Below, piece by piece: positions 2,638 through 39,276 of a stretch of DNA of 64,000 nucleotides (positions are counted from its first letter, which is position 1; each line of letters begins with the position of its first letter). Under the pieces are notes generated by a model that made no database searches, had not been told where the DNA came from, and worked only from the letters and a program-made list of their open reading frames with translations. The DNA lies in IMG/VR virus record IMGVR_UViG_3300003465_000004, positions 7,170-71,169 of that record, one strand, 5' to 3'. The position numbers and the translations under genes are program-made. The stretch is from a virus (Duplodnaviria > Caudoviricetes).

Positions 2638-2640
2638 ACC

Positions 2641-2647
2641 CTAAATA
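2641..2647 (+). promoter_or_regulatory. Late-promoter-like CTAAATA upstream of gp32
   Basis: Same heptamer recurs before many late genes. Confidence 0.55.
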
Positions 2648-2722
2648 TGCTTATTGAGCACTTCGCTGGTATGAGACACAACATACATCAACACTCAATA
2701 CACGATACGTTTGGAGCTAACA

Positions 2723-5642: not shown

Positions 5643-5726
5643 ATGCTGGACGCAATTCCGACGTTTGTGTGTATCGGACTAGTGTTCTTTACGCTTTGGC
5701 GCGTCGTGCGCGAAGGAATGATGTAA
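5643..5726 (+). CDS. Small hydrophobic peptide (27 aa)
   Basis: MLDAIPTFVCIGLVFFTLWRVVREGMM; ATG directly follows the previous stop; below the ORF-track cutoff. Confidence 0.45.
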   Translation: MLDAIPTFVCIGLVFFTLWRVVREGMM

Positions 5727-5843
5727 AATGTATCTGATGCCCGATATCGGGCGCGTTCAGGCGCGCTGGAATTCTTGAACCGATGGGAATCGCGATTCGG
5801 TGCAGCACAGCATGGAGCCAGTAAACACTCAAGACGTTTCATG

Positions 5844-5881
5844 AAGCGGCTAGGAAGTAAAACACTCCTAGCCGCTTTTTT
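5844..5881 (+). terminator. Intrinsic terminator between convergent units
   Basis: AAGCGGCTAGGA-loop-TCCTAGCCGCTT then a T-run. Confidence 0.8.
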
Positions 5882-5889
5882 GTGTGGTC

Positions 5890-6087
5890 TTAACGATTCA
5901 ATGACGAATCGTCGTCTCGGTGCCGACCCGAAGTTCCGGTCGGATTGTCTCGGTCACCGAACGGGCCGTCCAGAACGCGACAATTGATTTCGTCGTTCTT
6001 GATGTCCCGCACGTCAACCGTGTAACTCCCCTTTCCGGTAATCTTCTCCGGATTCTCCACGTTGAACCGCTTGTCTGCTGTCTGCAT
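5890..6087 (-). CDS. Small protein with its own promoter (65 aa)
   Basis: GGAGG SD 8 nt before the ATG; TTGCAA-16 bp-TATGAT promoter at 6129-6156. Confidence 0.55.
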   Translation of the reverse strand: MQTADKRFNVENPEKITGKGSYTVDVRDIKNDEINCRVLDGPFGDRDNPTGTSGRHRDDDSSLNR

Positions 6088-6164
6088 GCAGTTGGCCTCC
6101 ACACAACAAGCGTGCGTTGCGTGGAGCTATCATACTCCAAACGAAACCGATTGCAAGCTGAGCG

Positions 6165-23578: not shown

Positions 23579-26500
23579 ATGGCACTTAGTAATTCAGCAA
23601 TCAATACGCTTCGCAGTGCTCCATATTATGACGATTATTTTAGCGCGTCAGAAACGGAACCAGGAAAGCTTCGCGGAGAAGAATTTGACTTTCATCGCAT
23701 TCTCTTCCGTCCGCGCTTTCCTGTTCAATCTCGCGAACTGACACAGATACAGACGCTTCTTCAGGCGCAGCTTGAAAGACTGGGCAAAGCATCCTTCAAG
23801 GACGGAGAAAACGTCCTTGGTGGACAACTCACGCTTGATACCACTGCAACCAGCGGACAGGTCACTCTCAGCACAAACCTTGTCGCGTTTTTTGCACGTG
23901 CGAACAATACCGGAAAATACGTCTTTGAAACCGGCGATGAAACAAAGAAGGCATACGTTCTCCAATACGTCTCTGCCGACGAAGGCGAAACGTCCAACAA
24001 TTACCTAGTTTTCAAGCATCAAACCGGAAGCACGTTTTTGCCCGGCGCCGTGGTACAGGACGCGACCGACGCGACAGTTACGGCAACATTCCAGAGCGGC
24101 ACGACCGCAGACATTTTTCACGATGCATCTGTTATCAGCATTGATGAAGGTATCTTTTTCATTTCTGGTTTCTTCGTTCGTGTGCGTCCACAGACCATTG
24201 TGCTCAGCGCGTTTAGCGCACTGCCGTCGTTCCGGGTTGGTCTGGAAATCAACGAAGAAGTTCTTGACGAACAAGACGACATCGTAGGTGCCTCCCTACT
24301 GGACCCCACGAACAACGCACCGGGTGCACACCGTTTCCGTATCAGCCTCGTGCTCGCAAAGCGTCCCATTGAAACAACCGGACAAGGCAATTTCATCGAA
24401 CTGGCACGCATCATCAACGGAGAAGTTCACTACATCAAGAAGACGCCGAAGTTTGTCCGGCTAGACGAACTGAATCAGATTCTTGCGCGGCGAACCTTTG
24501 ATGAAGCAGGCGATTACATCGTCAAGACGTTCACCCCGGTCATCGAAACGAATCCTAACGACGAATCAACGTTCATCTTGTCTCTTGGACCGGGAAAAGC
24601 CTACGTGCGCGGGTACGAAGTTGAAACGACCCAACCAACAAAGAAAGTTGTCCGCAAAGGACGTGCGACGAATTCTGCAAACAACCGCAGTATTCCCACC
24701 ACAGTTGGTAATTTCGTCTACGCAACTCGCGTAGCGGCTACGTCGCCAGTTAACTACTTCGCAAATACCGCAACGGTAGACATCCTTTGCGCAAACATCT
24801 CAAGCATCAACGTTGCGTCGTCCGCAGAATATAACAAAGCGAAAATCGGAACCGCGAAGGTCCGCATGTTGGAAACATTCAGTGTTCCGAGCAATCCGGC
24901 ACTCTTCGCGAACAACAGCGTCTATAAATTGTTCTTTTACGATACGCGGTTCGATGTTGTAACCGGAAACGTCAGCAGTGCTGCGGTCACCAACAACGCA
25001 ATCGAACTTACGCTCGCATCAGCAAACGGGGTTCCCGCAATTACGGGTGCACTGGTCGGCGCGACACTCGTTATCGGCGGCGCACAATCTCCGATTTCAG
25101 GAACATACACCGTCAACAACTATACCGCTTCGGGCACAAATGCGGTTGTGCAGTTGAAAGAATTCCTGCCAACACTTCCAAACGCCAACAGCACCTATCG
25201 TTTCCTTTTCCAGACAAAGGACGTAGATGCGTTTGCACTGTTTGATGGCGCCGTCGGAGCCACCCAAGTCCCATACAAAGCAAATCTTTCATTCCAAGCC
25301 GAAGTATCTGAGTATAGTAAGCTTGGTGGAAATCCTACTGGCGTAACGTTTGTTACGGCAACAAACGACAACGTATTGCTCTATCAAATTCCTGAGCAAT
25401 TCGTTAAAGCCAACAGCATTACCAGTAACAGTGCTATCTTTACATCATGGCTGAAGACAACATCGAACAGTGCTGCGATGTCCAACGTCGCAAACGTCGC
25501 GGTCTCGGTCACGCTATCCGGCAATAATTTCGCACTAACAACTGGTAACCTTTCAGCAACCACCGCACGACAGAACTTCGTCATCTTCGACCAGACAGCA
25601 GACGCAAACGGCCACGGACAAATTATTCAATTCGTGGATACTCCGCAGTCTGGCGTGCGGTGCGCAGCAAACGTATCGGTTAGCGCACTTGGACAGACCT
25701 ACACACTATCCTTCACGTATTACAACGGAAGTCAAATTACGTCCACCCGTTCGTTTGTAGCACTTGCGCGCACGACCGTGAACGGACTGGCTCCGCGTGA
25801 AAAAACTCTCGTGGTTGGAAATACCACAGCGGTGTTGTCCGGCACAACGGGAGCACTCAACGCAGGACAGATTGAATTCCACAGCCTCAACGTTTCTTCA
25901 GGATTCACGTATTCGCTGAAAACCGCGGACGTGCTCAGCATTCGCAAGATTCTCTACAAGGAAGCCAATACCTCATTCGCGAATACTGACTTGACCACCG
26001 CAACTGACGTAACGAGTTACTTCACACTGGATACGGGTCAGCGCGACAACAGTTACGAATACAGCACCATCACACCAAAAACAAATGCAAGCAGCGTTGT
26101 GCGTCCAACCGGCCGGCTGCTTGTCATTTTCGATTGGTTCCGCCACAGCGGCCGCGGATATGTTTCCGTAGATAGCTACCTCACAAACCAGAACGTCGCA
26201 AACGGACTCTCATACGACGAAATTCCAGACTACAAGTCCGCACGCTATGCGCGTACCGTCAATCTTCGCAGCGTTCTTGATTTCCGGCCGGTGCGTTCAA
26301 ACTACGACTTCACAAACGTATCGCTTGTTTACGCAGCGAACGACACGAACGCGAACAACACCTATCTCACGTCAGACGGAAACAGCTACCTTATTCCTGT
26401 ATCAGATGACGTGTGGATGGGTAGTTACCAGTATTATCTATCCCGTATTGACAAGATTGGCGTAGCGTTCGACGGCACCTTCAAAATCTTCGAAGGCCAA

Positions 26501-29500
26501 GATGCTGTGGTACCCGTTGCCCCGACAGACGATAGCGGCAGCTTGCTTCTGTTCCAGCTTTCAATTCCACCATATACGCTTGTAGATGATGCTGGTGTAC
26601 CTACCCAAGTTACACTCAAAACATTTGACCACAAGCGGTACACGATGCGCGACTTGTCAAAACTAGACGACCGCGTGTCGCAGTTGGAATATTACACAGC
26701 CCTGAACTCCCTTGAACAAATTACGTCAAAGCAAACAATTCTTGATGCGGACGATAACGAACGATTCAAGAATGGTATTCTCGTGGATTCGTTCATGGGA
26801 CATACGGTCGCAGACGTGAGTCGGCCAGACTTCACTGCATCCATTGACAGCATGCAGCACGAACTTCGAACCGCGTTCCGCACGTTCGTGATGCAGTTTT
26901 CGCCGGATAACAAATATTCAACCAGCTATAACGTGAAACTGATTGGTGATATGGCCATTCCGGTTTATGGAATCGACACATTCATCAGCCAACCACTGGC
27001 GACCCGCGCAATTTCCGTCAACCCATTTGACGTGGCGTCGTTCTACGGCACACTGAAAATGTCTCCGTCTGTTGATATTTGGAAGGACGTAACTCAGCGT
27101 CCGGCACAAGTTATTGATATCGGGGGAACGTCTGATTCGTGGATTGGTTCGCTTCCGTCGTTCACCAATTGGGGGGAATGGGAACAGACCTGGTCTGGTG
27201 TAACAGCGGTTCAACCACGAACGGAATATTTCGCGCCAGAAGGATGGACGCCAGAAGTCCATGACCCTCTTTCAATGCTCGAAAATTCGTGGAATGAAAT
27301 TGAAACCACGACAAATTATCAGCGGCAAGGCACACAATACGAATTTACGTCCACGAAAGTCAACCAGAGCATCGGAAACCAAATTCTTGATATTTCTGTC
27401 GTTCACCACATGCGCGGGCGAGATGTGGTGTTTGCGGCAGACGGCCTCAAGCCAAACGCCAACTTGTATCCCTTCTTCGACGGGACAAGCGTTCTGCCCT
27501 ATGTGCAGAAAGCGAATATTCTACAGCTTATCGACCAACCGTTAACTGCAACACCCTTCTATATCGGGCAGACACTCTACGTCCGCAAAGCAATATCTGG
27601 AACTGTCACAGTGAACAGTGGTAGTGCGGTTATCGCTGGAACGAACACCAAATTCAGTTTCGAATTGGTACCGGGACAACTTGTTCGCGTCACGCAAGGT
27701 GTCAACACCTTCGATGCTTCCATTTCTACAATTACATCAAACACGTCCGCAACGCTGACGACGAACTCTCCGCAGAACCTTGCGGCAGCAACGCTCTACA
27801 CGTTGACTCCGGTTACTGTCGCAGACGTGGCTCGCCGTATTACCGGAAACACCGTTCAATATACGGTCAAAGTTGTTCGCGCAATTCGTGACGCCGATAC
27901 AGACGACGTAGTTCCCTATGCAATTCTCCCGGGTAGCTTGCGTCCAGAAAAACACGTCAACGATGCAGCGAATACCACATATGGTGCTACGGTTCTAATC
28001 CCGCCGGGCCCGCGTGCTGGAAATACCACGCAAAGCATCAATGTCAGCAGCGCCATTATTACGTCTGGTGTGGTGCGTAGCTACGACGGTCCGAGCGCGG
28101 CATTGCGTCTTGACAACGACATGGGAGCACTCGCGAACGGTACGACGATTTACTTCGTCTCCGGCGCCGGCGCAGGAACGTCCGCAAACGTTGTCAGCTA
28201 TAACACGGCCACACAGACGGCAACCGTTGACACGTCTCAACTTGCCGTGAATGGAACCACCATCTACAGTATCGGACAACCGGTATCCGACGGATTTATC
28301 GCAAACAATAGTATTACCTCTGGACGTGCTGGCACCATCGCAGGATGTCTGCACCTTCCAAACGCCCAATTTGCTGTCGGAACGCGACTCTTCCGTGTGT
28401 CCGACTCTCCAACAAACAACGTTCAGACTGCCACCACCAGTGCCGAAGAAAGCTATACAGCTTCGGGTGTATCCTACACACAACAGGCCGTTAGTATCTC
28501 TTCGCGAGAGATTGGTCTACGCACACGCCAAGTAACAGATAATCGGTCAGAAACAACACAAACTACGGCCGGATTCAAGCAGCAGTATATTGACCCACTT
28601 GCTGAAACATTTCTTGTAGACGGAAAGCTTTATCCGCAGGGGATTTTCTTAACGTCAGTAGACGTGTGCTTCGCATCGAAACCGACAGACGATATTCCTG
28701 TTATTGTTGAACTTCGTCCAGTAGTTAACGGTTATCCAAGTTCGAACCAAATCCTTCCGGCCGTTTCAAGTGAAGGGTTAGCTACCGTTTCGCTCCGGCC
28801 GGATGAAGTGAACACGACAGCAACACCAGATTTGGACGACAGCACAAAACGCACTCGTTTTGAATTCCCGGCGCCAATCAATCTTCTGCCGGGAGAATAT
28901 GCAATTGTGGTGCGTTCGGATAGTAACCTTTACACTGTCTATACTGCTGAACTCGGTGCTACCGTTATCGGCAGCAACGCGAAAGTTGCAAAACAACCTT
29001 ACGCAGGAAGCTTCTTCAAATCACAGAACGCAAGCACATGGACAGAATCTCCGTTTGAAGATTTGATGTTCCGTTTGAACCGAGCAACATGGGCCGCAAG
29101 CCCCGCATCTCCGAATACCGCCGTGTTGGTCGCACGCGCTGTGCCGCCGGCAGCAAACGCAACGTTTGATAGCTTCGAATTCTATCCACATGAAGTGCAG
29201 TTCGCGGAGCAAACCGCAATCAGTTATGCACTTGACATGCTCCCGTTGAACGAAGCAACACAAGACGTGACGGGCAGCATCGCAGCCCGATATAACGTCA
29301 TCCCAAATGCATGGACTCCGCTAGTTGCACGAAGCATGGTACAGGGGGGAATCGTTCGTAACCCGTTCAGCGGAACCGGGTCACTTACGGCCGCGAACAC
29401 AGTAGATGCAATGATTACGTTTACGACAACATCCCCGGATGTTGCGCCTTACGTAGACTTGAAGAAGCTGAACATTCTCTGCGTTCGTCATCTCATCAAC

Positions 29501-30397
29501 GATATGGGATTGACAAACACGAACGTCATTCTACAGAATCCGGGCGCAGGATACCTTGCCGCGCAGAGTGCAGGAACCGTTGCAACCACGTCGAACTCTC
29601 CGACCATCACAGGAACGGGAACCAACTTCGTCACGGCTCTCGCTGCGGGCGACACATTGGTTGTTGGTGGAAACGTGGAAGTGCGAGTATCCAGTGTAAC
29701 AAACGCAACGTCACTTGAAGCTACCTCAAACGTGGGGGTCACTCGGTCTGCAAACAGCTACCACACCTACGGAACGTTGGGTGGAAATAACGCTGTGGTG
29801 CTCACCATCAGCGGCAACGGAACAGATGCCGCGGGATACGCTACTGTCGGGCGAAACGGAAAACTTTCCGGCGTAGTCTTTAGTGCAAACGGTGCAGGAT
29901 ATACGGGCAACGTGACGTTGACTGTTCCTGCATCTACCGTGGTATTGGATGCAAGTCTTCACGTGAACGCAGCACTTCAGTATAACAGTGAATTGATGCC
30001 GGCGGACGGAAACGGACTGACACGGTACATTACACGCGCCGTCACACTTGCGGACGGATTCGATGCACGCGATATCCGTGTTTACTTCGATGCCTACCGT
30101 CCAACCGGCACGAAGTTCTACGTGTATTACAAAGTTCTTCCGGGGGATTCGACAGGACGCTTTGAAGACCAGTCATGGCGCCTCATGACGCAGGAAACGC
30201 CAGACACCACAGTTTCTACGAACTACAAGCAGTTCAAGGAATTTGTGTTCAAAACACCAAACGACCGAGCACTTGACCAGAGCACGGACACGACTGATAG
30301 GTTTAAGGTCTTTGCCGTGAAACTGGTAATGGCAACACAGAACCCGGTAAACGCACCAAGAGTGGCAAACTTCCGGGCGATTGCTTTGGACACCTAA
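23579..30397 (+). CDS. Very large virion structural protein (VrlC-like, baseplate/tail)
   Basis: APYYDDY, HRILFRP...QSRELTQIQT.LQ, ARRTFDEAGDY, GKAYVRGYE, RFKNG..VDSF, DPLAETF; typical of T4-like cyanophage structural proteins. Confidence 0.85.
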   Translation: MALSNSAINTLRSAPYYDDYFSASETEPGKLRGEEFDFHRILFRPRFPVQSRELTQIQTLLQAQLERLGKASFKDGENVLGGQLTLDTTATSGQVTLSTNLVAFFARANNTGKYVFETGDETKKAYVLQYVSADEGETSNNYLVFKHQTGSTFLPGAVVQDATDATVTATFQSGTTADIFHDASVISIDEGIFFISGFFVRVRPQTIVLSAFSALPSFRVGLEINEEVLDEQDDIVGASLLDPTNNAPGAHRFRISLVLAKRPIETTGQGNFIELARIINGEVHYIKKTPKFVRLDELNQILARRTFDEAGDYIVKTFTPVIETNPNDESTFILSLGPGKAYVRGYEVETTQPTKKVVRKGRATNSANNRSIPTTVGNFVYATRVAATSPVNYFANTATVDILCANISSINVASSAEYNKAKIGTAKVRMLETFSVPSNPALFANNSVYKLFFYDTRFDVVTGNVSSAAVTNNAIELTLASANGVPAITGALVGATLVIGGAQSPISGTYTVNNYTASGTNAVVQLKEFLPTLPNANSTYRFLFQTKDVDAFALFDGAVGATQVPYKANLSFQAEVSEYSKLGGNPTGVTFVTATNDNVLLYQIPEQFVKANSITSNSAIFTSWLKTTSNSAAMSNVANVAVSVTLSGNNFALTTGNLSATTARQNFVIFDQTADANGHGQIIQFVDTPQSGVRCAANVSVSALGQTYTLSFTYYNGSQITSTRSFVALARTTVNGLAPREKTLVVGNTTAVLSGTTGALNAGQIEFHSLNVSSGFTYSLKTADVLSIRKILYKEANTSFANTDLTTATDVTSYFTLDTGQRDNSYEYSTITPKTNASSVVRPTGRLLVIFDWFRHSGRGYVSVDSYLTNQNVANGLSYDEIPDYKSARYARTVNLRSVLDFRPVRSNYDFTNVSLVYAANDTNANNTYLTSDGNSYLIPVSDDVWMGSYQYYLSRIDKIGVAFDGTFKIFEGQDAVVPVAPTDDSGSLLLFQLSIPPYTLVDDAGVPTQVTLKTFDHKRYTMRDLSKLDDRVSQLEYYTALNSLEQITSKQTILDADDNERFKNGILVDSFMGHTVADVSRPDFTASIDSMQHELRTAFRTFVMQFSPDNKYSTSYNVKLIGDMAIPVYGIDTFISQPLATRAISVNPFDVASFYGTLKMSPSVDIWKDVTQRPAQVIDIGGTSDSWIGSLPSFTNWGEWEQTWSGVTAVQPRTEYFAPEGWTPEVHDPLSMLENSWNEIETTTNYQRQGTQYEFTSTKVNQSIGNQILDISVVHHMRGRDVVFAADGLKPNANLYPFFDGTSVLPYVQKANILQLIDQPLTATPFYIGQTLYVRKAISGTVTVNSGSAVIAGTNTKFSFELVPGQLVRVTQGVNTFDASISTITSNTSATLTTNSPQNLAAATLYTLTPVTVADVARRITGNTVQYTVKVVRAIRDADTDDVVPYAILPGSLRPEKHVNDAANTTYGATVLIPPGPRAGNTTQSINVSSAIITSGVVRSYDGPSAALRLDNDMGALANGTTIYFVSGAGAGTSANVVSYNTATQTATVDTSQLAVNGTTIYSIGQPVSDGFIANNSITSGRAGTIAGCLHLPNAQFAVGTRLFRVSDSPTNNVQTATTSAEESYTASGVSYTQQAVSISSREIGLRTRQVTDNRSETTQTTAGFKQQYIDPLAETFLVDGKLYPQGIFLTSVDVCFASKPTDDIPVIVELRPVVNGYPSSNQILPAVSSEGLATVSLRPDEVNTTATPDLDDSTKRTRFEFPAPINLLPGEYAIVVRSDSNLYTVYTAELGATVIGSNAKVAKQPYAGSFFKSQNASTWTESPFEDLMFRLNRATWAASPASPNTAVLVARAVPPAANATFDSFEFYPHEVQFAEQTAISYALDMLPLNEATQDVTGSIAARYNVIPNAWTPLVARSMVQGGIVRNPFSGTGSLTAANTVDAMITFTTTSPDVAPYVDLKKLNILCVRHLINDMGLTNTNVILQNPGAGYLAAQSAGTVATTSNSPTITGTGTNFVTALAAGDTLVVGGNVEVRVSSVTNATSLEATSNVGVTRSANSYHTYGTLGGNNAVVLTISGNGTDAAGYATVGRNGKLSGVVFSANGAGYTGNVTLTVPASTVVLDASLHVNAALQYNSELMPADGNGLTRYITRAVTLADGFDARDIRVYFDAYRPTGTKFYVYYKVLPGDSTGRFEDQSWRLMTQETPDTTVSTNYKQFKEFVFKTPNDRALDQSTDTTDRFKVFAVKLVMATQNPVNAPRVANFRAIALDT

Positions 30398-30434
30398 ATA
30401 AGTGGAGATACGACGGATACTATATAGTATTACT

Positions 30435-30947
30435 ATGTCTGTCGTATTACAAGACCTCACGGGTAAGCAATTTGGAAAGTGGCACGTCGTATCTAAGAAT
30501 GTAAGGTCCCAACATGGATGGGACTGGCATTGTAAGTGTGTATGCGGTACTGAAAAGATTGTTCTAGGAAACCGGCTACGGTCGGGTAGGTCACAAAGTT
30601 GTGGCTGCGAAAGAACGAAGAAACTGAAAGAGGTAAATTCAAGCCGCAGTGGGAACAAACATCATATGTGGAAGGGCGGACGACATGTCACCAAGACCGG
30701 CTATGTGATATTGAATAGACCCGAACATCCAAACTCTAACCGTGGGCGCGTTGCTGAACATGTCGTCGTTATGACGAAAATTCTGGGTCGTCCACTATAC
30801 AAGGGCGAAACGGTCCACCATAAGAATGGTATTCGGTCAGACAACAGACCGGAGAATCTTGAACTCCATGCTTCGGCGCACGGCCGTGGACAACGTATCC
30901 CCGACCTTGTTGAATGGGCGAGAGAGATTTTAGCAAGGTACACATAA
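30435..30947 (+). CDS. HNH homing endonuclease (family A, copy 3)
   Basis: DLTGKQFGKW..CKCVCG..SQSCGC..WKGG..ETVHHKNGIRSDNRPENLEL; CTAAATA at 30394-30400. Confidence 0.88.
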   Translation: MSVVLQDLTGKQFGKWHVVSKNVRSQHGWDWHCKCVCGTEKIVLGNRLRSGRSQSCGCERTKKLKEVNSSRSGNKHHMWKGGRHVTKTGYVILNRPEHPNSNRGRVAEHVVVMTKILGRPLYKGETVHHKNGIRSDNRPENLELHASAHGRGQRIPDLVEWAREILARYT

Positions 30948-30951: not shown

Positions 30952-31197
30952 ATGGCGAAACAGCAAGTCGTTCAGACCGAAGATAAGGCTTTCGTTCGGG
31001 ACATCCATTCGAAGGCCTTGCTCAACACAGACACTCAAGCTTTGGAACGAAATCGTATGGCACGAGCAAAAACGCAAGAACACCAACGGTTGAAGCGTGA
31101 GGTAGAATGCTTACGTGTTGCTTATGAGAGCGTTGACGCGAAGTTGAATTTCATCATTTCAGAAATCGAAAAATCGAGCATTTGTATTAAACGGTAA
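30952..31197 (+). CDS. Conserved small T4-like structural-region protein
   Basis: FVRDIHSKALLNTD followed by a coiled coil, typical downstream of the VrlC-like gene. Confidence 0.75.
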   Translation: MAKQQVVQTEDKAFVRDIHSKALLNTDTQALERNRMARAKTQEHQRLKREVECLRVAYESVDAKLNFIISEIEKSSICIKR

Positions 31198-32465
31198 TGA
31201 TACTTGACCCCATTTCAACATCGAATACTCTTGTTGACCTTGTTACCCGAACACAAGAAATTATCGATGAACTGAATAATAATGTCGTTAAAGGTGGCAG
31301 CAACGGTGCAGTTGAATTTGCCAATACGGCCGCATTCGCAAACACAGCGGCGGCCGCTGATACTGCCAATACGGCCGCATTCGCAAACACAGCGGCGGCC
31401 GCTGATACTGCCAATAATGCACTCTACCTTGGTGGACAGCTTCCGGCATTCTATACCAACGCATCAAATCTTATATCGGGAACCGTGTCTCCTACACGTC
31501 TACCGTCTGCTGTGGCGTATGAAGATGAGGCGAACACCTTCGCTCAGCGTCAGCTTTATGGGGTTGCCAACGGTTCCAGTTGGTTTGTCGAGAACATCGC
31601 TTCGTATCAATGGGTGCCGGATAGGGGATATGGTGCCCTTTCCATCAATACAAACATTTCATATAACGAATACGTGATGACCGTGGTACATCTCAGAGGT
31701 TATCTTTATGAATCCAGAACACCTCTTGATGTAAAGATTGGATTTTATCCATACTTTAATGGGGCGACGCTTCAGTGGATTAACACCGGATATGTTGACC
31801 TCGGAGGTCGTCCATTTCGGGTGCGTTTGGCTCTTGAGGCGTCCACAGGTAAGGTCGTTATTCTACTAGGCGAGGTATCAGATACGCCGGGGAATTACTA
31901 CGGCAGTCTTACTTGTTCTGCATACCTACGCACCAACCAGACTACTGCCTTTACTGCATCTTACGGATGGTCAATTTCCCACCGTACCTCGTTGACGGGG
32001 TTGACGAATGTTAGTGATGTTCCACGAACTACATTTAATAATGGAGTATTTGAACGCGAACGAACACTAGCGCAAGGAGAGTGGACCTCATATACCCCCA
32101 CCTGGAGTTCTTCTGGAACACAACCCAGTCTCGGAAATGGAATTCTCACCGGACGTTATATGCGGATAGGCAAGACAGTTTTTTTTGGTATTGCCTTCAG
32201 CTTCGGGTCAACCAGCAGCGCAGGTACAGGCCTTTGGTTGTGGTCCTTGCCACTTACTGCATCACGCAGTGGTTTTGAAGCAATCCCTGCGCGAATTCTA
32301 GACGGGGGCGTTCAGTGGTATATAGGATTGGGCTATCTCAATAGCTCTACAACTGTTGCCGTTCTTAATCACGGAAATACTGGGTCTGGTATCGGGTTTA
32401 ACAATCCCTTCGTTTGGGCGTCCGGAGATGCGGTTTATATTCAAGGGTTCTATGAAGAAGCCTAA
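31197..32465 (+). CDS. Tail fibre/receptor-binding protein
   Basis: SNTL..L.T.T..II..LN N-terminus shared with 37031; YLGGQLPAFY..ASNL.SGTV...RLP fibre motif; WTSYTPTW..GNG..TGRY..IGKTV C-terminal domain. Confidence 0.75.
   Translation: MILDPISTSNTLVDLVTRTQEIIDELNNNVVKGGSNGAVEFANTAAFANTAAAADTANTAAFANTAAAADTANNALYLGGQLPAFYTNASNLISGTVSPTRLPSAVAYEDEANTFAQRQLYGVANGSSWFVENIASYQWVPDRGYGALSINTNISYNEYVMTVVHLRGYLYESRTPLDVKIGFYPYFNGATLQWINTGYVDLGGRPFRVRLALEASTGKVVILLGEVSDTPGNYYGSLTCSAYLRTNQTTAFTASYGWSISHRTSLTGLTNVSDVPRTTFNNGVFERERTLAQGEWTSYTPTWSSSGTQPSLGNGILTGRYMRIGKTVFFGIAFSFGSTSSAGTGLWLWSLPLTASRSGFEAIPARILDGGVQWYIGLGYLNSSTTVAVLNHGNTGSGIGFNNPFVWASGDAVYIQGFYEEA
31320..31409 (+). repeat. Perfect 2 x 45-bp tandem repeat (ANTAAFANTAAAADT) in the fibre gene
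   Basis: Direct reading of the DNA. Confidence 0.9.
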
Positions 32466-32500
32466 TTTATCTGCACAAATCTCAACCTAAATAACCGCAT

Positions 32501-33316
32501 ATGGCTAAAGCACCCGGAAGTCTTTGGGTGGACGGAAATACGCTCCACTACGTAGACAAATCTAACGCAGAATGGTATTTCACGGGCACCGTCGTCGCGA
32601 GCGCGGCCGGCTCAATCGCAGGCAGTCCGTGGATTGACAGCGGCAAACTGCGTTACATCGACACCGGAAATCGTCATCGCGAAATCAATGCTGTGCTGAT
32701 TGCTAGTCGCTCTGGTGCTATTCCCGGTTCTATCTGGATTGAGACAACTGCGAACAACAACTACTCCCTGCACATCATCAACAACGATGGTAGCACAAAC
32801 GAATATGCGCTCCACAGCGACGTAGCACTCGTCAATACGCACAGTGACGTAGCGAACACCCACAACGACCACACTGACCACACGGACGTGCATGAGGACG
32901 ACTGGCATGGAGACCAGTATATCTACAATTATCGTGACACCGGCGGCGGCAAGACATATACAGACGGTGGCCCGCACGCCGACCACACGGACCACAGCGA
33001 CCACACGGACGGTTATAACGACCACACGGACCATGCCGACCACGATGACTGGGTAAGCCACGCGGACGAACTGGTCTACGACGACCACAACGACCATTCA
33101 GATAATACGGTTCCGCACGCTGACGGAAATATTCACAGCGACGGTGGAAGTCCACACGGTGACGCACATACGGACTACTCGCACGATGACCGTCACGGAG
33201 ATGACCCGCCGCATCAGGACAGCGGAACGCCACATCAAGACGGGTATCTTGCAAACCATCAGGACTCGCACGGCGACACGCAACATGTGGACGACCCTGT
33301 ATACGTAGGACCATAA
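32501..33316 (+). CDS. His-x-Asp repeat protein; putative modified virion protein or RiPP-like precursor
   Basis: About 105-aa beta-rich N-terminal domain with GSLWVD/GSPWID/GSIWIE repeats, then about 28 H-x-D motifs; CTAAATA at 32487-32493. Confidence 0.8.
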   Translation: MAKAPGSLWVDGNTLHYVDKSNAEWYFTGTVVASAAGSIAGSPWIDSGKLRYIDTGNRHREINAVLIASRSGAIPGSIWIETTANNNYSLHIINNDGSTNEYALHSDVALVNTHSDVANTHNDHTDHTDVHEDDWHGDQYIYNYRDTGGGKTYTDGGPHADHTDHSDHTDGYNDHTDHADHDDWVSHADELVYDDHNDHSDNTVPHADGNIHSDGGSPHGDAHTDYSHDDRHGDDPPHQDSGTPHQDGYLANHQDSHGDTQHVDDPVYVGP

Positions 33317-33819
33317 TGTCAGAACCACGCAGCAATAATCACGTTCAGATAGAGTCGTTTGCCGCGTGGATTCTAGCTGCCCAAATTGCCGGAGGTTTCA
33401 CGACGGTCTCTGCGCCACCTCCGGAGAAACCTGCTACATCAGTGTTGCATCAATCTCAAGCTATCAATGCAGCGTTAAATCTTCTACGTCAAGTAAATTC
33501 ACCAGTCACCGCGCGCATCATCACGATTTCCAAGCGCCCGGAGTTTGTGTCTAAGAACGCTGAGGCCTATGCATTGGGAAAGGGGTTCATCTACATTCTG
33601 ACAGATACCCCACTATATAAGAATGCATCGCGGGGAGACGGCGAAGCCATTATCAAACTCGCTTCGGTCATCGCGCACGAACAGGTCCATGCCGATGGTG
33701 TTGCCGATGAGAAAGCAGCTTACGAGCAACAGCTAACTATTCTTAGACGCATGAACGCTCCGGAAAAACTTTGTCGGGATGTGATGTTTTCGCTCCATTC
33801 GGTTTCATCAAAACGGTAA
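33316..33819 (+). CDS. Putative zinc metallopeptidase (HExxH)
   Basis: VIAHEQVH..DE..AY; N-terminal ESFAAWILAAQIA segment. Confidence 0.55.
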   Translation: MSEPRSNNHVQIESFAAWILAAQIAGGFTTVSAPPPEKPATSVLHQSQAINAALNLLRQVNSPVTARIITISKRPEFVSKNAEAYALGKGFIYILTDTPLYKNASRGDGEAIIKLASVIAHEQVHADGVADEKAAYEQQLTILRRMNAPEKLCRDVMFSLHSVSSKR

Positions 33820-33829
33820 TTTATTCACT

Positions 33830-35119
33830 ATGTCAACTGAAATTCGTCCGGTAACTACGGACTGCAACATTCGTTGCGTGTATTGCTATCAAACAAGTTT
33901 GCGCGATGCGGACCCGACTCATCGTTACGATGAAGAAGCGGTCTTTGAGGCAGCAAAGAAACTAGACAACCCGTTCAGTTTGTTTGGGGGAGAGTCACTT
34001 ATTCTTCCACTCCCGAAGATTGAAAAGCTACTGGAACTCTGCTTCAGTCGGTGGAAATCGTCAGGCATCCAAACAAACGGAACACTCATCACTGAAGCAC
34101 ACATCGAAGCGTTCAAGAAATACAAAACGCATGTCGGCATTTCACTCGACGGACCGGATGAACTCAACGACAGTCGATGGGCAGGGACACGAGAAGCGAC
34201 AAAGAAACTAACCGCCCGAACGCACTGGGCAATCAAACGTCTGGCTGAGGAATCAAAAAAGAACAAGCTGGACTTCTTGATGCCAAGCATCATCGTTACA
34301 CTTCATGCTGGAAACGCATCAAAAGAGCGTTTTCCCCGATTAGTGCAATGGTTTCATGAACTAGACGACATGGGCATCCAGCACATGAATCTACACATCA
34401 TGGAACTCGATGGAATGGCAAAGGAACTTTATCTTCCACAAGAAGAACTTGCTGACCGTCTCATAGACTTATGGAACATGCAGCATGAATTCAAGAACTT
34501 GCGTTTCACTAAGTTTGACGAAATCTTGAGATTGTTGGAAGGTGACGACTGTAGCGTGGTCTGCATCTGGCGAGCATGCGACCCGCACAACACACAAGCA
34601 GTCAACGGCATCGAAAATGATGGCGCCCCGTCCGTCTGTTCCCGCGTGCATAAGGGAGCTATTAACTGGCTCCCTGCTGAAGGTTCAGGATACGACGCAA
34701 AGTTTATCGGCCACCCCGGCACGCGACTTCACACCCGTCAACTTGCGCTATATATCACGCCGCAAGAACACGGTGGCTGTCAAGGATGCCCGTTTTGGCT
34801 CGTGTGTTTAGGGAATTGCCCGGGTGAAGGGGAACACGGCGACTGGCGACTTCGCTCACACTACTGCTACACTTTCAAACGACTCTTCGATGAAGGTGCC
34901 AAGCGACTTCGACTGGTTGGAAAGAAACCAATCTGCGATTGGGAGCATCGCGGGCACTTGGAAGAGCAACTACAGAATCTTTTCCTCACCGGACATCCAC
35001 AAGCGACTCTAAATTTCGTTGTCAAAATGGATAAGGACGCCACCAAAAAGGGCATGACGCGCGTGAAAAACGGTTATCACGCCGATTCCGATTATCATGA
35101 GGATTCCGATGGAAAATAA
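33830..35119 (+). CDS. Radical SAM protein with SPASM-like auxiliary cluster motifs
   Basis: CNIRCVYC (CxxxCxxC), LFGGES, IQTNGT, VGISLDGP; C-terminal CIWRACD, C.GC.F..VCLGNCP; tail YHADSDYHED. Confidence 0.93.
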   Translation: MSTEIRPVTTDCNIRCVYCYQTSLRDADPTHRYDEEAVFEAAKKLDNPFSLFGGESLILPLPKIEKLLELCFSRWKSSGIQTNGTLITEAHIEAFKKYKTHVGISLDGPDELNDSRWAGTREATKKLTARTHWAIKRLAEESKKNKLDFLMPSIIVTLHAGNASKERFPRLVQWFHELDDMGIQHMNLHIMELDGMAKELYLPQEELADRLIDLWNMQHEFKNLRFTKFDEILRLLEGDDCSVVCIWRACDPHNTQAVNGIENDGAPSVCSRVHKGAINWLPAEGSGYDAKFIGHPGTRLHTRQLALYITPQEHGGCQGCPFWLVCLGNCPGEGEHGDWRLRSHYCYTFKRLFDEGAKRLRLVGKKPICDWEHRGHLEEQLQNLFLTGHPQATLNFVVKMDKDATKKGMTRVKNGYHADSDYHEDSDGK

Positions 35120-36446
35120 GACCCCCGTCATCCCCGTTGACTTTACTCGCTGGCAGTGGGCTGGACTTGTTGAGCGAAACTACTGGGCGCCAATTTTTCG
35201 TGAAGTCTCCACCGCGTTCCATGAACTTGAACGGCTCGCCGTCGTGAAAGGCCTCCGTAAAGCAGCATGGCAGTTCGTTGCGTTTGACAGTTTGGTAACT
35301 TCGACGGAATGGGCACACAAGCACGGACTGCTTCTAATCCCCACCAATCTTTCTGCGTCTACAACCGGATATGCGTCAACTGGCGCACAGCTATCGGGAC
35401 GACCAACAAGTGTCCGATGTGTCTATGTTCGCCCGGAACACTACACTGACGTTCTTCCGTTCACAGAAAACCAGAAAATTGGAGAATGGTTGGGATTCCC
35501 AAAGTGCTGCCGCGACAACTTCGACAACACATGGGCCGTTGGCTCCGTAGATACAACGTTCGAACAAGTGAAGACGGACAACTTCTTGTGGGAAACATCA
35601 ACACTATTTCGCTGGATGGGGGTGCGTCTTGTTGCACATCTACCTTGCCACTATGGTTGTGAAGAGTCACAACGAATCGGTCAACAGTTCTACGAACTCG
35701 GTCTAAAGTCCGGTTTCCTTGAGCAAATGATGTATGCGAAAGAAATTCTACACTGGCCGGTCTATGGCTCTCGTCTCATCGGCATCTCCGAACTCATTAC
35801 TCCGGCGCTGAAAATCATCTCACGCACGAACTGGACGCCGACGAAAGAAGAATTCACAATTTCAGGTATCTACAACCGTCCCACGAAATTCATCTGGAAA
35901 GATAACGGATTCAAATCATTTGAAGGAATGCGCCGAGCACATGCCGCGCTTATCGACCAACTAAAAGAGCAGCTTCCCCCAAATGCGCGGGTGCTCGACT
36001 TGGGATGCGGAGACGGACACTTACTGCGACGATTGCAGTTATATCGTCCAGATGTTCGTATTGCAGGAGTGGACCACAACGAAGACGCCATTATACGCGC
36101 CAAAAAACACATGGTGGGAACGTGGTGGGCAGGGAAGATTCAGGACGGGCAATGGAAGGATTGGGGAGCTACAGCAGCACTCATCAATCCTGCCCGTTTC
36201 CTTGAGATGTCGGAAGAGGAAGCAAAAAAGACGAAGCACCATCTGCGGCACGTTCCGATGCTTTTTGTCTATAACTATGACGACAAAGACATCAACACAC
36301 TCTCAGAAGAAGCAGGGCTACGTGTGGAACCCCTGTTCAAAGTTCCAAATATTACAATGGGAGTCCAACATACGCACGCCGACGCCGGAATGTGGGAAAA
36401 CTTTGTTCATGAGGATGGGAGCGCGGTGCAGCTAGGACATGTATAA
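35097..36446 (+). CDS. Cys-cluster domain fused to a class I SAM-dependent methyltransferase
   Basis: LGFPKCC and HLPCHYGC motifs; VLDLGCGDGHLL..IAGVDHN; alternative start at 35109. Confidence 0.78.
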   Translation: MRIPMENKTPVIPVDFTRWQWAGLVERNYWAPIFREVSTAFHELERLAVVKGLRKAAWQFVAFDSLVTSTEWAHKHGLLLIPTNLSASTTGYASTGAQLSGRPTSVRCVYVRPEHYTDVLPFTENQKIGEWLGFPKCCRDNFDNTWAVGSVDTTFEQVKTDNFLWETSTLFRWMGVRLVAHLPCHYGCEESQRIGQQFYELGLKSGFLEQMMYAKEILHWPVYGSRLIGISELITPALKIISRTNWTPTKEEFTISGIYNRPTKFIWKDNGFKSFEGMRRAHAALIDQLKEQLPPNARVLDLGCGDGHLLRRLQLYRPDVRIAGVDHNEDAIIRAKKHMVGTWWAGKIQDGQWKDWGATAALINPARFLEMSEEEAKKTKHHLRHVPMLFVYNYDDKDINTLSEEAGLRVEPLFKVPNITMGVQHTHADAGMWENFVHEDGSAVQLGHV

Positions 36447-37010
36447 ATGAACGACGAAAAACTTCAACTAGAATCATTCGCTGCTTGGGTACTGGCAGCA
36501 CAAATTGCAGTGGCCACCGGAACCGGCGTAAGCAATGCCGAGTCGCTGTCCGTCCGTCAAATTGCGGCTGAGATATCTCGGCACAACAAAGAGCATTTCG
36601 TCTTACTTGACAAAGATGGGAAAGTAGTTGCGGCTGGAAGTGGGGAACGGAACGGTATTGGTTTTAGTCGTGAAATACTCACACTACTCCGCAACCCGCA
36701 ATCTCAGCTTACGCTGGTACACAATCATCCCGAAGAAACATCTCTTAGTCGCAGAGACATTGATTTGTTCCAACAGTCTCCTGGTCTCACCAGTTTGAAT
36801 GCCGTAACGCCAAACCGCATCTACACTATTTCGTGGGCCCGGTCGGACGTATGGACGCAGTATAACCAACGATATAGCGAGCGGGAAGACCAGCTACGTC
36901 GAACCCTCAAGCCTGCGGATTTCAACGCAGCTATGCATAAGGTGGCGCATGAAGTGATGACCGAACTTCATAAAAAAGGAATCGTTAAGTATTCGGTGAC
37001 TCGGTACTAA
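36447..37010 (+). CDS. JAB/MPN-like metalloprotein
   Basis: EHFVLLD...LTLVHNHP..TSLSRRDI (HxH-x7-S-x2-D); N-terminal ESFAAWVLAAQIA segment. Confidence 0.62.
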   Translation: MNDEKLQLESFAAWVLAAQIAVATGTGVSNAESLSVRQIAAEISRHNKEHFVLLDKDGKVVAAGSGERNGIGFSREILTLLRNPQSQLTLVHNHPEETSLSRRDIDLFQQSPGLTSLNAVTPNRIYTISWARSDVWTQYNQRYSEREDQLRRTLKPADFNAAMHKVAHEVMTELHKKGIVKYSVTRY

Positions 37011-37030
37011 ACGTCCCTAAATACTCGCGT

Positions 37031-38311
37031 ATGCCTATCACAGCCCTTCAACAAACCGATACGTTCCGAACATGGTATAATCGGACGAATGAAATTATCG
37101 ACCAGTTGAACACGAAGGTACTCAGCGACAACGCAACCGTGAACGGAGTGTTCACGATTGGCACTGGGTCCCTGTCCGTCGCAAACCTCTTTTCGGTCAA
37201 CACGACAAGCATCGTGCTGAAGGGCACGACTGTCCTTTCGTCTAACGTGACGATTAACAGTTCTGCGAACATTGTTAATATTGCCGCTGGGTCCTTGTTG
37301 ATTAACGCAAATACCGTTGTCAACAATCCTCTAACAGTCAATGCGGCGCTAGCCATTACAGGAAACACTAACGCTGTTGGCAGCTTGACTCGCACCGGTG
37401 ACGAGTCTATTACAGGAAACGTTGCGGTTACTGGCGGAGTCTCCGTCGCCAATGGAGCACTCACGATTCGCAACGTTACCTTCGGTTCTCCAAGTTCGAC
37501 ACTTTCCCCGGCACCACTCACGAACCCGTCCTACAACGATTATAATCCAGCAGGACTTACAGAATGCCAGTTGCTCGCGCTCACACCAAACATTGATACT
37601 GTCATCACAGGTATTCAAGCGCCAAGCATTGTGGGAAGCCGGATGCTGTTCATTCAAAATATGAGCGGCACGTATAAAATTACGTTCCCGTCTGGAAATA
37701 CAGCGTCCGCGGCATCGAACCGGTTCAAGACTCCAAGTGACAATCCAATTGATTTGCCGCCGGGAGCACTCATGGTGGCGCTCTGGTCGTCAACAGCCAG
37801 CCAGTGGCGACTCCTGAACCCGTCCGTGTCGCTTTTCAATTCAACGCTGACCGGAAATACAGTTATTGCCGGACCACTCACCGTCAATAGTGGTGCGACT
37901 TTTGCGACAGCGAACGTCAGTTTTGGGTCAGCACTGTATATCGATTTCATCAACAGTCGCGTTGGTGTAAAAATTTCCAACCCTGCATACGACTTTCAGG
38001 TATCCGGAAACTCATACTTTGGTGTCACGACTATTGCCGGCGCCACGACACTTTCGGCTCCCATTACGGCAACAGCCAACGCATCACTTGGAAATGGTGC
38101 GTTGTCACTGAATGCAACAGGAAACACGGCAACGTTTGCGAATACGATTACTGCAAACGGCAGTTCACAGTCATACGTTCGTAGTCTCAAGTCCACGTCA
38201 TTTGTTGTGGATGATACCACCACAACTGCTAATTTAACGGCAACAGCTAAAGCCACCCTATCTGGAACACTCGTTATCCCGGTAGGCGCGAATAAGTGGG
38301 CAACGGCATAA
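37031..38311 (+). CDS. Fibre-like virion structural protein
   Basis: TDTFRTWYNRTNEII N-terminus, Thr/Asn/Gly-rich beta repeats; CTAAATA at 37017-37023. Confidence 0.75.
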   Translation: MPITALQQTDTFRTWYNRTNEIIDQLNTKVLSDNATVNGVFTIGTGSLSVANLFSVNTTSIVLKGTTVLSSNVTINSSANIVNIAAGSLLINANTVVNNPLTVNAALAITGNTNAVGSLTRTGDESITGNVAVTGGVSVANGALTIRNVTFGSPSSTLSPAPLTNPSYNDYNPAGLTECQLLALTPNIDTVITGIQAPSIVGSRMLFIQNMSGTYKITFPSGNTASAASNRFKTPSDNPIDLPPGALMVALWSSTASQWRLLNPSVSLFNSTLTGNTVIAGPLTVNSGATFATANVSFGSALYIDFINSRVGVKISNPAYDFQVSGNSYFGVTTIAGATTLSAPITATANASLGNGALSLNATGNTATFANTITANGSSQSYVRSLKSTSFVVDDTTTTANLTATAKATLSGTLVIPVGANKWATA

Positions 38312-39276
38312 TGGCTCTCCCAAACACACGCGAAGAGTTCAAAGCATACTGTTTACGAGCAATTGGTGCGCCTGTGCTGCAAATCAACGTAGACGACGCA
38401 CAGCTAGAGGACCGTATAGACGAAGCTATCTACCTTTACCAGCAGTTCCATATGGACGCGGTGATGAAGGACTATATTTCGTTTTTGGTGACAGCCAGCA
38501 CGATGCGATTTACAGGGGCGACTCCCGCGTTCCAAAACAACGAACCTTTGCGTGGCGCGACTTCTAACGCGACCGGTGACGTATATAAGACAGTCTCCGC
38601 AAACACAATTGAATTCGTCGGAGCCTCCAAGAATATCATGTTCGTGCCGGGAGAAACGGTGACCGGTCAATGGAGCGGAGCGACCGGAACCATCGCAGCA
38701 AACGGCATCGTTTTGGGCGCCGTGGATAACGAATATTTTACATTGCCGGACGAGGTTATCAGCGTCACTAGAGTCTTCCCCCCGTTTGATTCACGCATGT
38801 CGGCCGACATTCTCTTTGACCCACAAAACCAGTTTAATATTTCCTTGCTGTCAAGTTTCACCACGAACAGCATTGTTCCATACGTTATAGGACGGCAATA
38901 TCAGCAGCTAATCAATGACACATTCCGCGGCCGGCCGCTAATGCGGTTTGAGCGGCACATGAATCGGATACATATTGACGTGGACTGGAAAACCGTATTC
39001 CGGCCGGGTGCATATCTGGTCATTGAAGCCTACCGTGCTATTGACCCCACTGTATATGGGGAGGTTTGGACCGACAGATGGCTACAGCGGTATACCATTG
39101 CACTTTTCAAACGTCAATGGGGGATGAATCTTTCAAAGTATAACGGCATCGCATTACCGGGTGGTGTCACATTGGATGGCAAAACAATGTTCGCTGATGC
39201 TGAAACAGAAATTCAAAAATTGGAAGAAGAACTTCGTACCACATACGAACTCCCAATTATTTTCACAATTGGATAG
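38311..39276 (+). CDS. 13: Neck protein gp13
   Basis: REEFKAYCLRAIGAPVLQINVDDAQLEDRIDEA; KRQWGMNLSKY.G..LPGGVTLDG. Confidence 0.96.
   Translation: MALPNTREEFKAYCLRAIGAPVLQINVDDAQLEDRIDEAIYLYQQFHMDAVMKDYISFLVTASTMRFTGATPAFQNNEPLRGATSNATGDVYKTVSANTIEFVGASKNIMFVPGETVTGQWSGATGTIAANGIVLGAVDNEYFTLPDEVISVTRVFPPFDSRMSADILFDPQNQFNISLLSSFTTNSIVPYVIGRQYQQLINDTFRGRPLMRFERHMNRIHIDVDWKTVFRPGAYLVIEAYRAIDPTVYGEVWTDRWLQRYTIALFKRQWGMNLSKYNGIALPGGVTLDGKTMFADAETEIQKLEEELRTTYELPIIFTIG

Follow-up and report, generated by a model that had tools for sequence, protein, structure and literature searches.

A cassette of five genes, located among the fibre genes of a T4-like phage, very probably serves the chemical modification of one of the proteins that it encodes, to judge from sequence. 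The cassette lies at positions 32501–37010 of a 64,000-nucleotide stretch of DNA (positions 7,170 to 71,169 of the IMG/VR virus record IMGVR_UViG_3300003465_000004), which is referred to here as the window; the cassette, its parts, and the two flanking fibre genes are on its plus strand. The proposed substrate is the product of the first open reading frame (ORF), ORF1, in which triads of the His-x-Asp (H-x-D) type form a long array. It is accompanied by a radical S-adenosylmethionine (SAM) enzyme of the SPASM type (ORF3) and by a Cys-rich domain, named here DUF483-like, which makes up the N-terminal half of ORF4. We found that these three components are the conserved core of a system whose range extends to Thermus phages, many uncultured phages, and archaeal loci, and to bacteria of more than eight phyla. 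In the reading that we favour, with a probability of roughly 0.55, this is a late protein-maturation cassette, in which the radical SAM enzyme and the DUF483-like domain would join the triads into three-residue cyclophane rings on a probable virion protein. Ring-forming crosslinks are the most likely modification; to our knowledge, such crosslinks have not been shown for any virus protein.

A three-part system built around triad arrays

The initial annotation of the window had listed a CTAAATA motif at 32487 followed by five packed genes between fibre genes, and had assigned to these genes a 271-aa protein with about 28 H-x-D motifs, an HExxH protein, a CxxxCxxC radical SAM enzyme with extra Cys clusters, an LGFPKCC/HLPC domain fused to a class I methyltransferase, and a JAB-like protein. 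This inventory was reproduced throughout. ORF1 (271 aa, 32501–33316) contains exactly 28 H-x-D triads, and all 28 His residues of its 167-residue array stand in one of them. Four Y-x-D units join the 28 H-x-D units in the array (aa 105–263, 32813–33289), which gives the set of proposed modification sites. When the array residues were shuffled, 6.3 ± 2.0 HxD motifs were obtained, with a maximum of 13, and none of 5,000 shuffles reached 28. Moreover, the HD, HxxD, and HxxxD registers were depleted. Clearly, the unit of ORF1 is a three-residue motif rather than a composition rich in His and Asp. In a six-frame translation of the whole 71-kb contig, the single contig into which the phage was assembled, no other frame had five or more HxD motifs.

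An AlphaFold2 model of ORF1, based on 28 relatives, and an alignment of the array in 28 sequences (ORF1 with 27 relatives), divided the protein into three parts. The N-terminal domain (aa 1–110, 32501–32830), with three 'GSxW(I/V)E..L.Y.D' hairpin repeats, was modelled as all-beta with a predicted local distance difference test score (pLDDT) above 90. The array was modelled as disordered (pLDDT below 50). It is followed by a conserved end, 'D-x-P-x-Y-V-G' (33290–33316 with the stop codon), in which D264 and P266 are invariant across the 28 sequences and aa 267–270 were modelled as a beta strand with a pLDDT of about 90. As the only other strands of the model belong to the N-terminal domain, the C-terminal strand must pair with it if the model is correct, which would close the array into a loop of about 155 residues. 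No significant structural relative of the N-terminal domain was found by Foldseek (E ≥ 0.08) or VIA (best Z 3.7). A search for homologues of this domain in a set of 5.8 billion proteins returned only three matches, owing to word-index limits, and the locus-based phmmer comparison was more informative.

We compared 160 loci around matches to the radical SAM enzyme, taken from viral and cellular collections (individual loci are given below as L with a number); 84 loci with true family members were set against 79 loci with other radical SAM enzymes. The co-occurrence of HxD-rich ORFs with this enzyme, for which the initial annotation had suggested a search, was found: of 83 family loci, 67 had an ORF with at least eight HxD motifs beside the radical SAM gene, as against none of the 79 controls. 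By group, it was present in 44/48 viral, 3/3 Thermus, 7/7 divergent (4/4 and 3/3), and 12/24 genome family loci, versus 0/52 genome and 1/28 viral controls, the single control being a truncated true family member. Mostly this ORF was directly upstream of the radical SAM gene, and often it overlapped the start of that gene. The DUF483-like domain was encoded in 73 of 84 family loci and in none of the 79 controls. It was fused to the radical SAM enzyme in five bacterial loci (L090, L092, L093, L096, and L098), and to a methyltransferase in 46 of the 84 family loci. The N-terminal domain of ORF1 was found in 40 of the 84 (controls, 0/79). Thus, the conserved core consists of the array protein, the SPASM radical SAM enzyme, and the DUF483-like domain. 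The initial annotation had presented all five genes as one system; the remaining two, ORF2 and ORF5, are lineage-specific additions outside this core, because one relative of ORF2 and no homologue of ORF5 were found among the compared family loci. Counts of any aromatic-x-D/N/K/S/R triad had a high background (control median 4) and give only secondary support.

The triads themselves vary between loci. In L012, 37 P-F-x-N units replace H-x-D, while the N-terminal domain and the C-terminal end of the protein are retained. The protein encoded upstream of the radical SAM gene ends in seven P-H-x-K units in Fulvivirga (L103), whereas four P-Y-I-K units are present in a Spirosomataceae genome (L101), a short PHxD run in Nannocystis (L090), and a small protein ending in HVDFHVD in a cyanobacterium (L084), where it is encoded just upstream of the radical SAM gene. 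In Bryobacterales, peptides of 63–87 aa with PHxD motifs precede fusions of the radical SAM enzyme with the DUF483-like domain, which is the classic precursor architecture of RiPPs, peptides made on the ribosome and modified after translation. A quick tree placed the window enzyme with those of the viral contigs L004, L005, and L055 (Shimodaira–Hasegawa-like approximate likelihood ratio test, 95), and both the K-type pair and the F-x-N locus nested within H-x-D relatives, so that at least two switches of the motif took place inside a single enzyme family. What all variants have in common is an aromatic ring in position 1 and a beta-methylene in position 3, and nothing else.

Some further arrays were seen in the same loci. 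Several bacterial substrates are proteins of 830–1,180 aa with repeated 'GYxAxxVGxAL' helical units, which end in PHxD, PHxK, or PYxK arrays right before the radical SAM gene (L086:7328-9982, L089:2-2629, L091:6549-9521, L101:7506-10004, L103:6841-9975, and L090:6458-9997). In two loci (L084:7359-7940 and L088:12784-13206), a twin-arginine-like 'RRxLLxAGW' segment precedes short HxD arrays, which suggests that these bacterial products are exported. Additionally, control loci with unrelated SPASM enzymes encode arrays of eight Y-x-D (L143:8903-9853), eight F-x-D (L149:2056-2775), or nine H-x-R triads (L115:6390-6686), and these may represent further uncharacterised triceptide-like systems.

The proposed maturation enzymes and their likely chemistry

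ORF3 (429 aa, 33830–35119) is a radical SAM enzyme: its CX3CX2C motif (C12-x3-C16-x2-C19) is invariant in 17 relatives, and the radical SAM model PF04055 matched it with 60 bits against a cutoff of 29.5. Further residues of ORF3, C250-x14-G265-x4-C270, C317-x2-C320-x5-C326-x3-C330, and C346, are all invariant in the same 17 relatives and fit the SPASM definition of CX9-15GX4C, a gap, CX2CX5CX3C, a gap, and C, which corresponds to two auxiliary clusters; C245 is additional. The Pfam SPASM model was not among the ORF3 matches at E ≤ 0.1, and we assign ORF3 to the SPASM enzymes because of the Cys motif and of a full-length alignment to the sulfatase-maturating enzyme anSME. As the protein begins straight at CX3CX2C, it is without an N-terminal leader-binding domain (RRE).

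The closest relatives of ORF3 all act on peptides or proteins. In a profile search, anSME (4K36) was the best solved relative and gave the only full-length alignment (E = 4e-21), followed by the cyclophane synthase ChlB. Over all 17 members, the best curated models were anSME (1e-22), AmcB (6e-22), YhhB (1e-19), DynA, and GrrM/OscB, and the order of the scores was the same in every relative. The initial annotation had proposed comparing the enzyme with such families; its nearest kin are indeed peptide and protein maturases (anSME, AmcB, YhhB, GrrM/OscB, and ChlB), and not DNA-modification or cofactor enzymes. Together with the linkage of HxD arrays to the radical SAM gene, this kinship supports the core of the RiPP-like interpretation put forward there, namely that a SPASM enzyme, with a methyltransferase, modifies a late HxD protein. 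However, ORF3 scored below the cutoff of each family: 61.8 bits against 349.45 for anSME (TIGR03942), 51.5 against 310 for GrrM/OscB, 48.4 against 445 for YhhB, 32.3 against 450 for XyeB, and 69.7 against 425 for AmcB. As the best curated models stay 5–10 times below their cutoffs, ORF3 represents a separate, new SPASM family that belongs to none of the characterised ones. This family is large, with 1,030 matches at E ≤ 1e-20. The enzymes anSME, AmcB, YhhB, DynA, GrrM/OscB, and ChlB all take the C-beta hydrogen from a residue of a peptide or protein.

ORF3 ends in GYHADSDYHEDSDGK, and its C-terminal tail, YHADSDYHEDSDGK (35072–35116), resembles the substrate. The initial annotation had noted substrate-like motifs in both enzymes of the cassette. 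For the radical SAM enzyme this holds: H417 and D419 are kept in 17/17 close relatives, and an HxD tail also occurs in Thermus phages and in the L048/L107 clade. HTHAD near the C-terminus of ORF4, in contrast, is not conserved among relatives. As the tail is missing from other clades of the family, it is not essential, and the radical SAM enzymes that are paired with FxN, HxK, or YxK substrates carry no tail.

ORF4 (449 aa, 35097–36446; pLDDT of its model, 88) combines the DUF483-like domain (aa 1–262, 35097–35882), with its LGFPKCC and HLPCHYGC motifs, and a class I SAM-dependent methyltransferase (aa 262–449, 35880–36446), with the motif VLDLGCGDG. In the former, W21, C137, C138, D152, G175, R177, and C188 are invariant, and C184 is His in the Thermus phages; this pattern suggests a metal or redox centre. 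The match of the DUF483 model PF04467 to this half is weak (13.7 bits, E = 0.064, with a gathering threshold of 25 bits). It also matches 13 of 18 relatives weakly, at best with E = 6.9e-6, hence the name DUF483-like. When a profile of the domain was run against 1.84 billion representatives, 1,064 clusters matched at E ≤ 1e-30, and the lengths of these clusters fit stand-alone, methyltransferase-fused, and radical SAM-fused forms. Against sequences of the PDB, the profile gave only chance-level matches (E ≥ 0.34), and the ESM Atlas gave only hypothetical or DUF483 clusters (score 0.78). Fold searches with the whole ORF4 say little on this half, as the methyltransferase half filled the match lists. 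A paper that turned up under DUF483 (PMC13350694) concerns DUF4832 and is irrelevant here. The methyltransferase half matched PF13847 (33.5 bits, cutoff 27) and PF13489 (30.3 bits, cutoff 27). Its aa 262–433 aligned to many methyltransferases (Z of about 14, root-mean-square deviation of about 3.3 Å over about 159 residues), with the protein methyltransferase PrmA as the top Foldseek match. A complex prediction for the radical SAM enzyme, the DUF483-like half, and ORF1, run without controls, scored 0.00, which speaks neither for nor against binding.

These observations can be combined into a mechanism. ORF1, with its beta domain, its disordered array of about 160 residues and 32 aromatic-x-Asp triads, and its C-terminal strand folding back, would be the substrate. 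ORF3 would work together with the putative metal- or redox-centre domain of ORF4, and would most likely remove a hydrogen from C-beta of the Asp in position 3, so that this carbon could be joined to the ring of the first residue (C2 of His, or Tyr). The resulting string of three-residue cyclophane rings would turn a floppy array into a rigid element resistant to proteases and heat, and the methyltransferase half of ORF4 may add methyl groups as an optional tailoring. We favour a coupling of ring to C-beta, as in triceptides, because the variant arrays share only the aromatic position 1 and the beta-CH2 position 3. This is the definition of the triceptide motif, and His-C2-to-C-beta links were demonstrated on HAA, HNR, and HTK motifs, with a His-to-Phe change tolerated (PMC11499958). 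The 28 HxD and four YxD triads of ORF1, like the FxN, HxK, and YxK variants, have the form of such adjacent aromatic-X2-X3 substrates.

Another argument for cyclophanes comes from four uncultured phages, in which a gene for an aKG-HExxH peptide beta-hydroxylase (TIGR04267; three of them at 45.8–70.5 bits against a cutoff of 40) adjoins the array/radical SAM cassette (L011:8854-9696, L018:8054-8989, L024:13324-14202, and L050:12417-13325). In the one case characterised from this family, Asp and His are hydroxylated only once a cyclophane is installed (PMC12636437). The arrays in these four cassettes are predicted to carry hydroxylated Asp or His.

Several points weigh against the cyclophane reading. 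ORF3 is far below the cutoff of every cyclophane synthase model, as the AmcB score shows (69.7 against 425), and anSME, its sole full-length similarity, is an oxidase and not a crosslinker. The DUF483-like partner may contribute a decisive chemistry of its own. Of the 24 genome family loci, 12 lack a large HxD ORF; some of these have variant or very short arrays, and some have none within the sequence available. The association with the virion is deduced from gene position and from fusions in other phages. Finally, in HXS, the only His-repeat system studied by experiment, maturation gives +8 Da on SHRSS, and not the −2 Da of a simple ring (PMC13128918).

Part of this evidence would fit a different chemistry on the same substrate and with the same enzymes: a C-beta oxidation of the anSME type, the '+C/−4H' carbon insertion of the HXS type, an epimerisation, or a crosslink between triads or between chains. 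That anSME is the best full-length relative of ORF3, that HXS maturation does not give −2 Da, and that a second step may be contributed by the DUF483-like domain, for which the characterised triceptide systems offer no equivalent, all point in this direction. We nevertheless consider such a chemistry unlikely, if worth serious attention, since the variation of the unit (H, F, or Y at position 1; D, N, or K at position 3) fits a ring-to-C-beta coupling better than a chemistry specific to a side chain, and the hydroxylase family of the four phage cassettes has a characterised member that needs a cyclophane.

In the virion, the matured array protein would probably belong to the fibre or baseplate apparatus. 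In the window, fibre genes flank the cassette, the gp13-like neck gene comes after it, and a late-type motif stands in front. In the Thermus phage Cumys, the cassette follows the baseplate and tail-collar-fibre genes, and fibre homologues flank the cassette in L004, L034, L040, L055, and L164. Proteins of 700–1,180 aa end in the array in other phages, and two of these proteins have a match to a PHROG annotated as 'virion structural protein'. The array protein of L050 has an N-terminal extension that, as we read its sequence, resembles the N-terminus of a tail fibre. Gene position and fusions are suggestive of a virion location, and are not a proof of it. Alternatively, the array protein could be a precursor: cleavage, for which ORF2 or ORF5 would be candidates here, might release small modified peptides or a soluble product that acts on the host or on competitors, either while infection proceeds or once the cell has lysed. 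The cassette of the window does have two peptidase-like genes, and the bacterial substrates resemble common RiPP precursors of small size, some of them bearing export signals like those of the twin-arginine translocation pathway. However, almost all other cassettes are without ORF2 and ORF5, the cassette genes are in late structural operons, and the phage versions are conserved whole, with the N-terminal domain and C-terminal strand, or end very long fibre-like proteins; we therefore regard a cleaved precursor as improbable.

Still less credible is that the array is a fibre segment binding Zn, Fe, or Ni, next to enzymes that serve another purpose. His and Asp are classic metal ligands, and T4 fibre proteins have His-coordinated metal ions, sites to which the array might be compared. 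But arrays of P-F-x-N, P-Y-x-K, and P-H-x-K, which are poor or different ligands, fill the same slot beside the same enzymes, the linkage of the array to the radical SAM enzyme and the DUF483-like domain is near-obligate, and generic metal binding would not need a strict i/i+2 register with depleted neighbours. Hardly any weight can be given to a modification of phage DNA by the radical SAM–DUF483 pair: in some cyanobacteria, homologues are reported close to genes for deazapurine modification of DNA (bioRxiv 10.1101/2024.08.14.607894), but the enzyme families closest to ORF3 all have peptides or proteins as their targets, the third gene of the Thermus module encodes an HxD array protein, the cyanobacterial L084 also has the small HVDFHVD-ending protein gene, and the cassettes are in structural and not in replication operons.

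Genomic setting and accessory genes

The phage is a divergent T4-like myovirus, and the window covers its structural module, with genes for baseplate hub and wedge, a 2,272-aa fibre protein, a gp13-like neck protein, sheath, portal, scaffold, and the major capsid protein. The nearest named relatives of this phage are cyanomyoviruses, at about 34% identity. No sulfatase gene is present in the window. No near-identical DNA of the cassette was found among 50,697 phage records, and none of the public sequencing runs, RNA included, is listed as holding the cassette.

The five genes are tightly packed: two of their junctions are overlaps (1 and 23 nt), one leaves a gap of 10 nt, and one leaves none. 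A CTAAATA motif (32487–32493) is placed 14 nt 5′ of the ORF1 ATG, and the next one (37017–37023), at the end of the cassette, opens the unit of the downstream fibre gene; the motif and the start region of ORF1 are repeated at 37016, preceding that gene. The window has 17 copies of CTAAATA versus 4.1 expected, a number that none of 100 shuffles reached, and at least five genes carry the motif at a fixed 13–14 nt before the ATG. By analogy with T4-type late promoters, CTAAATA may act as a promoter. Within the cassette, no sigma-70-like or terminator-like sites were found beyond background. Because of the motif in front and of this lack of internal promoter- or terminator-like sites, the cassette looks like one late transcription unit. 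The spacing of 13–14 nt from motif start to ATG was seen before several late genes (copies at 18354, 32487, 37017, 49072, and 63015, with 12 more in the window), and a spacing of about 50 nt ahead of the scaffold and major capsid genes. If CTAAATA is a T4-type late promoter, the mRNAs of the genes with the short spacing would be almost leaderless.

The upstream fibre gene (422 aa, 31197–32465) has PHROG tail-fibre matches, and its homologues in L034, L040, and L041 are 1–2 kb upstream of the array gene. Near its N-terminus, the encoded protein has a tandem duplication, ANTAAFANTAAAADT twice. The downstream fibre-like gene (426 aa, 37031–38311) has homologues that adjoin the cassette in L004, L055, and L164, and is followed by the gp13-like neck gene (38296–39276). 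The giant 2,272-aa fibre-like protein is encoded at 23579–30397, and its counterpart in the relative L164 has DUF4815. Directly 3′ of it is an HNH endonuclease gene (30402–30947; PF13392, E = 5e-11), probably a homing endonuclease insertion, and the CTAAATA of this gene at 30394 overlaps the stop codon of the giant gene.

In ORF2 (167 aa, 33316–33819), an N-terminal tag is joined by a Pro-rich linker to a core with an HExxH motif (AHEQVH). This ORF has no match in Pfam, NCBIfam, or PHROG, and its single relative stands in the equivalent slot of L046. We considered whether it is a truncated aKG-HExxH hydroxylase (TIGR04267), and rejected this: there was no NCBIfam match at E ≤ 1, and a comparison with the four true members of other cassettes gave an hhalign probability of 0.3%, which indicates that they are unrelated. 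ORF5 (187 aa, 36447–37010), which contains HNHPEETSLSRRD, is a JAB/MPN-like (RadC-like) putative metallopeptidase. The RadC model PF04002 gave 17 bits, under its cutoff of 22.1. The motif of ORF5, HNHPx6Sx2D, is one residue short of the canonical JAMM spacing E...HxHx7Sx2D and is kept in both homologues. These only homologues, P0125 and P0126, adjoin the radical SAM gene in L166 and L164, the two closest relatives, and they keep the tag. In L166, genes of the Gad2 family (PF26128) and of PD-(D/E)XK type lie just upstream of the cassette (5502-6125).

The tag is shared by ORF2 (aa 10–25, VQIESFAAWILAAQIA, 33343–33390) and ORF5 (aa 6–21, LQLESFAAWVLAAQIA, 36462–36509). The two copies of 16 residues are identical at 13 positions (E = 8e-7), and the linker behind each is rich in Pro or in Gly/Ser. 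No other ORF of the window or of the fetched loci has this tag. The tag copies are 74% identical in DNA versus 81% in protein, with mostly synonymous changes, and the tag is kept in distant homologues, which argues against a recent DNA duplication. A Sec signal or a transmembrane anchor is unlikely, as the N-flank is acidic and the hydrophobic run has only about 13 residues in L166. The tag may recruit ORF2 and ORF5, as metallopeptidase-like accessories, to one common partner.

Comparison with known systems

If the cyclophane reading is correct, the radical chemistry known from RiPPs matures large structural proteins of viruses besides small secreted peptides. This would be a new class of post-translational modification of virions, with likely effects on fibre rigidity, on resistance to proteases or heat, or on receptor binding. 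A further consequence would be a new family of SPASM enzymes that come with an obligate partner, with about 1,000–3,000 protein clusters in phages, archaea, and many bacterial phyla; such enzymes, able to modify dozens of sites in one substrate and needing no leader peptide, would be attractive for peptide and protein engineering. More tentatively, and as a possibility rather than an expectation, phages of hot springs, soils, waters, and hypersaline sites might build a part of their host-contacting apparatus from a protein stapled by a radical SAM enzyme into dozens of three-residue rings (His-Asp, Phe-Asn, or His-Lys), which would be the first radical SAM modification of a virus particle and the work of a new two-component maturase, a SPASM enzyme with a DUF483-like domain, for which whole proteins would be the substrates and no leader peptide would be needed.

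The triceptide systems (HaaB, YhhB, and HtkB, which have His motifs, and ChlB, XyeB/XncB, GrrM/OscB, AmcB, and FxsB) are similar in that a SPASM enzyme stands beside a substrate with repeated aromatic-x-X3 motifs, in which His, Phe, and Tyr can replace one another in position 1 and position 3 is Asp, Asn, or Lys. An optional aKG-HExxH hydroxylase in some cassettes is another common trait, and the triceptide models are the best curated ones after anSME. However, the phage enzyme is in none of these families, with scores 5–10 times under the cutoffs, and the phage system has the obligate DUF483-like partner and no RRE or leader logic. The substrates in its family are whole proteins, 200–1,200 aa long and carrying as many as about 90 units, whose genes are part of phage structural operons; they are not short secreted peptides. 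With anSME (4K36), ORF3 shares the size, the absence of an RRE, the full SPASM Cys set, and a protein substrate from which the C-beta hydrogen is abstracted. In contrast, each substrate of anSME is oxidised at only one Cys or Ser, without repeats, and neither a sulfatase nor a C/S-x-P-x-R motif is found near ORF3.

The initial annotation had drawn an analogy with the HXS systems (HxsA/B/C/D). The likeness stands insofar as a repeat protein of the His-x-small-residue type is matured by radical SAM enzymes, and the HXS repeat protein matters in the conflict between phage and host, as it blocks the entry of phage DNA in the periplasm (PMC13128918). The triceptide systems are closer to the phage cassette, though. 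ORF3 scored 31.6 bits against a cutoff of 370 for HxsB (TIGR03978), and HXS is a bacterial defence with two paired radical SAM enzymes, HxsD, an exported effector, and the motif HxS, whereas the phage structural module encodes a single radical SAM enzyme with a DUF483-like domain and the motif HxD. The phage system could be a phage-side mirror of this bacterial defence.

The initial annotation knew of no described equivalent in T4-like phages. The gene trio has been described in a preprint on Thermus phages as an 'rSAM module' of a radical SAM enzyme, a DUF483 protein, and a protein of unknown role, for which DNA modification was proposed; the preprint is silent on His repeats (bioRxiv 10.1101/2024.08.14.607894). 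Thus, the system is not confined to T4-like phages. In a literature search, no paper was found that ties these genes to protein modification. The module of the Thermus phages (Cumys, phiMa, and phiLo) is without the methyltransferase fusion and without the ORF2 and ORF5 accessories. It is otherwise the three-gene system of the window: its radical SAM enzyme is about 41% identical to ORF3, its DUF483 protein matches the N-terminal half of ORF4 with E = 1e-32, and the upstream protein has an N-terminal domain of the ORF1 type and 53–72 HxD motifs. Baseplate and fibre genes precede the module. As these three phages of Thermus thermophilus are cultivable, the proposed maturation is directly testable in them.

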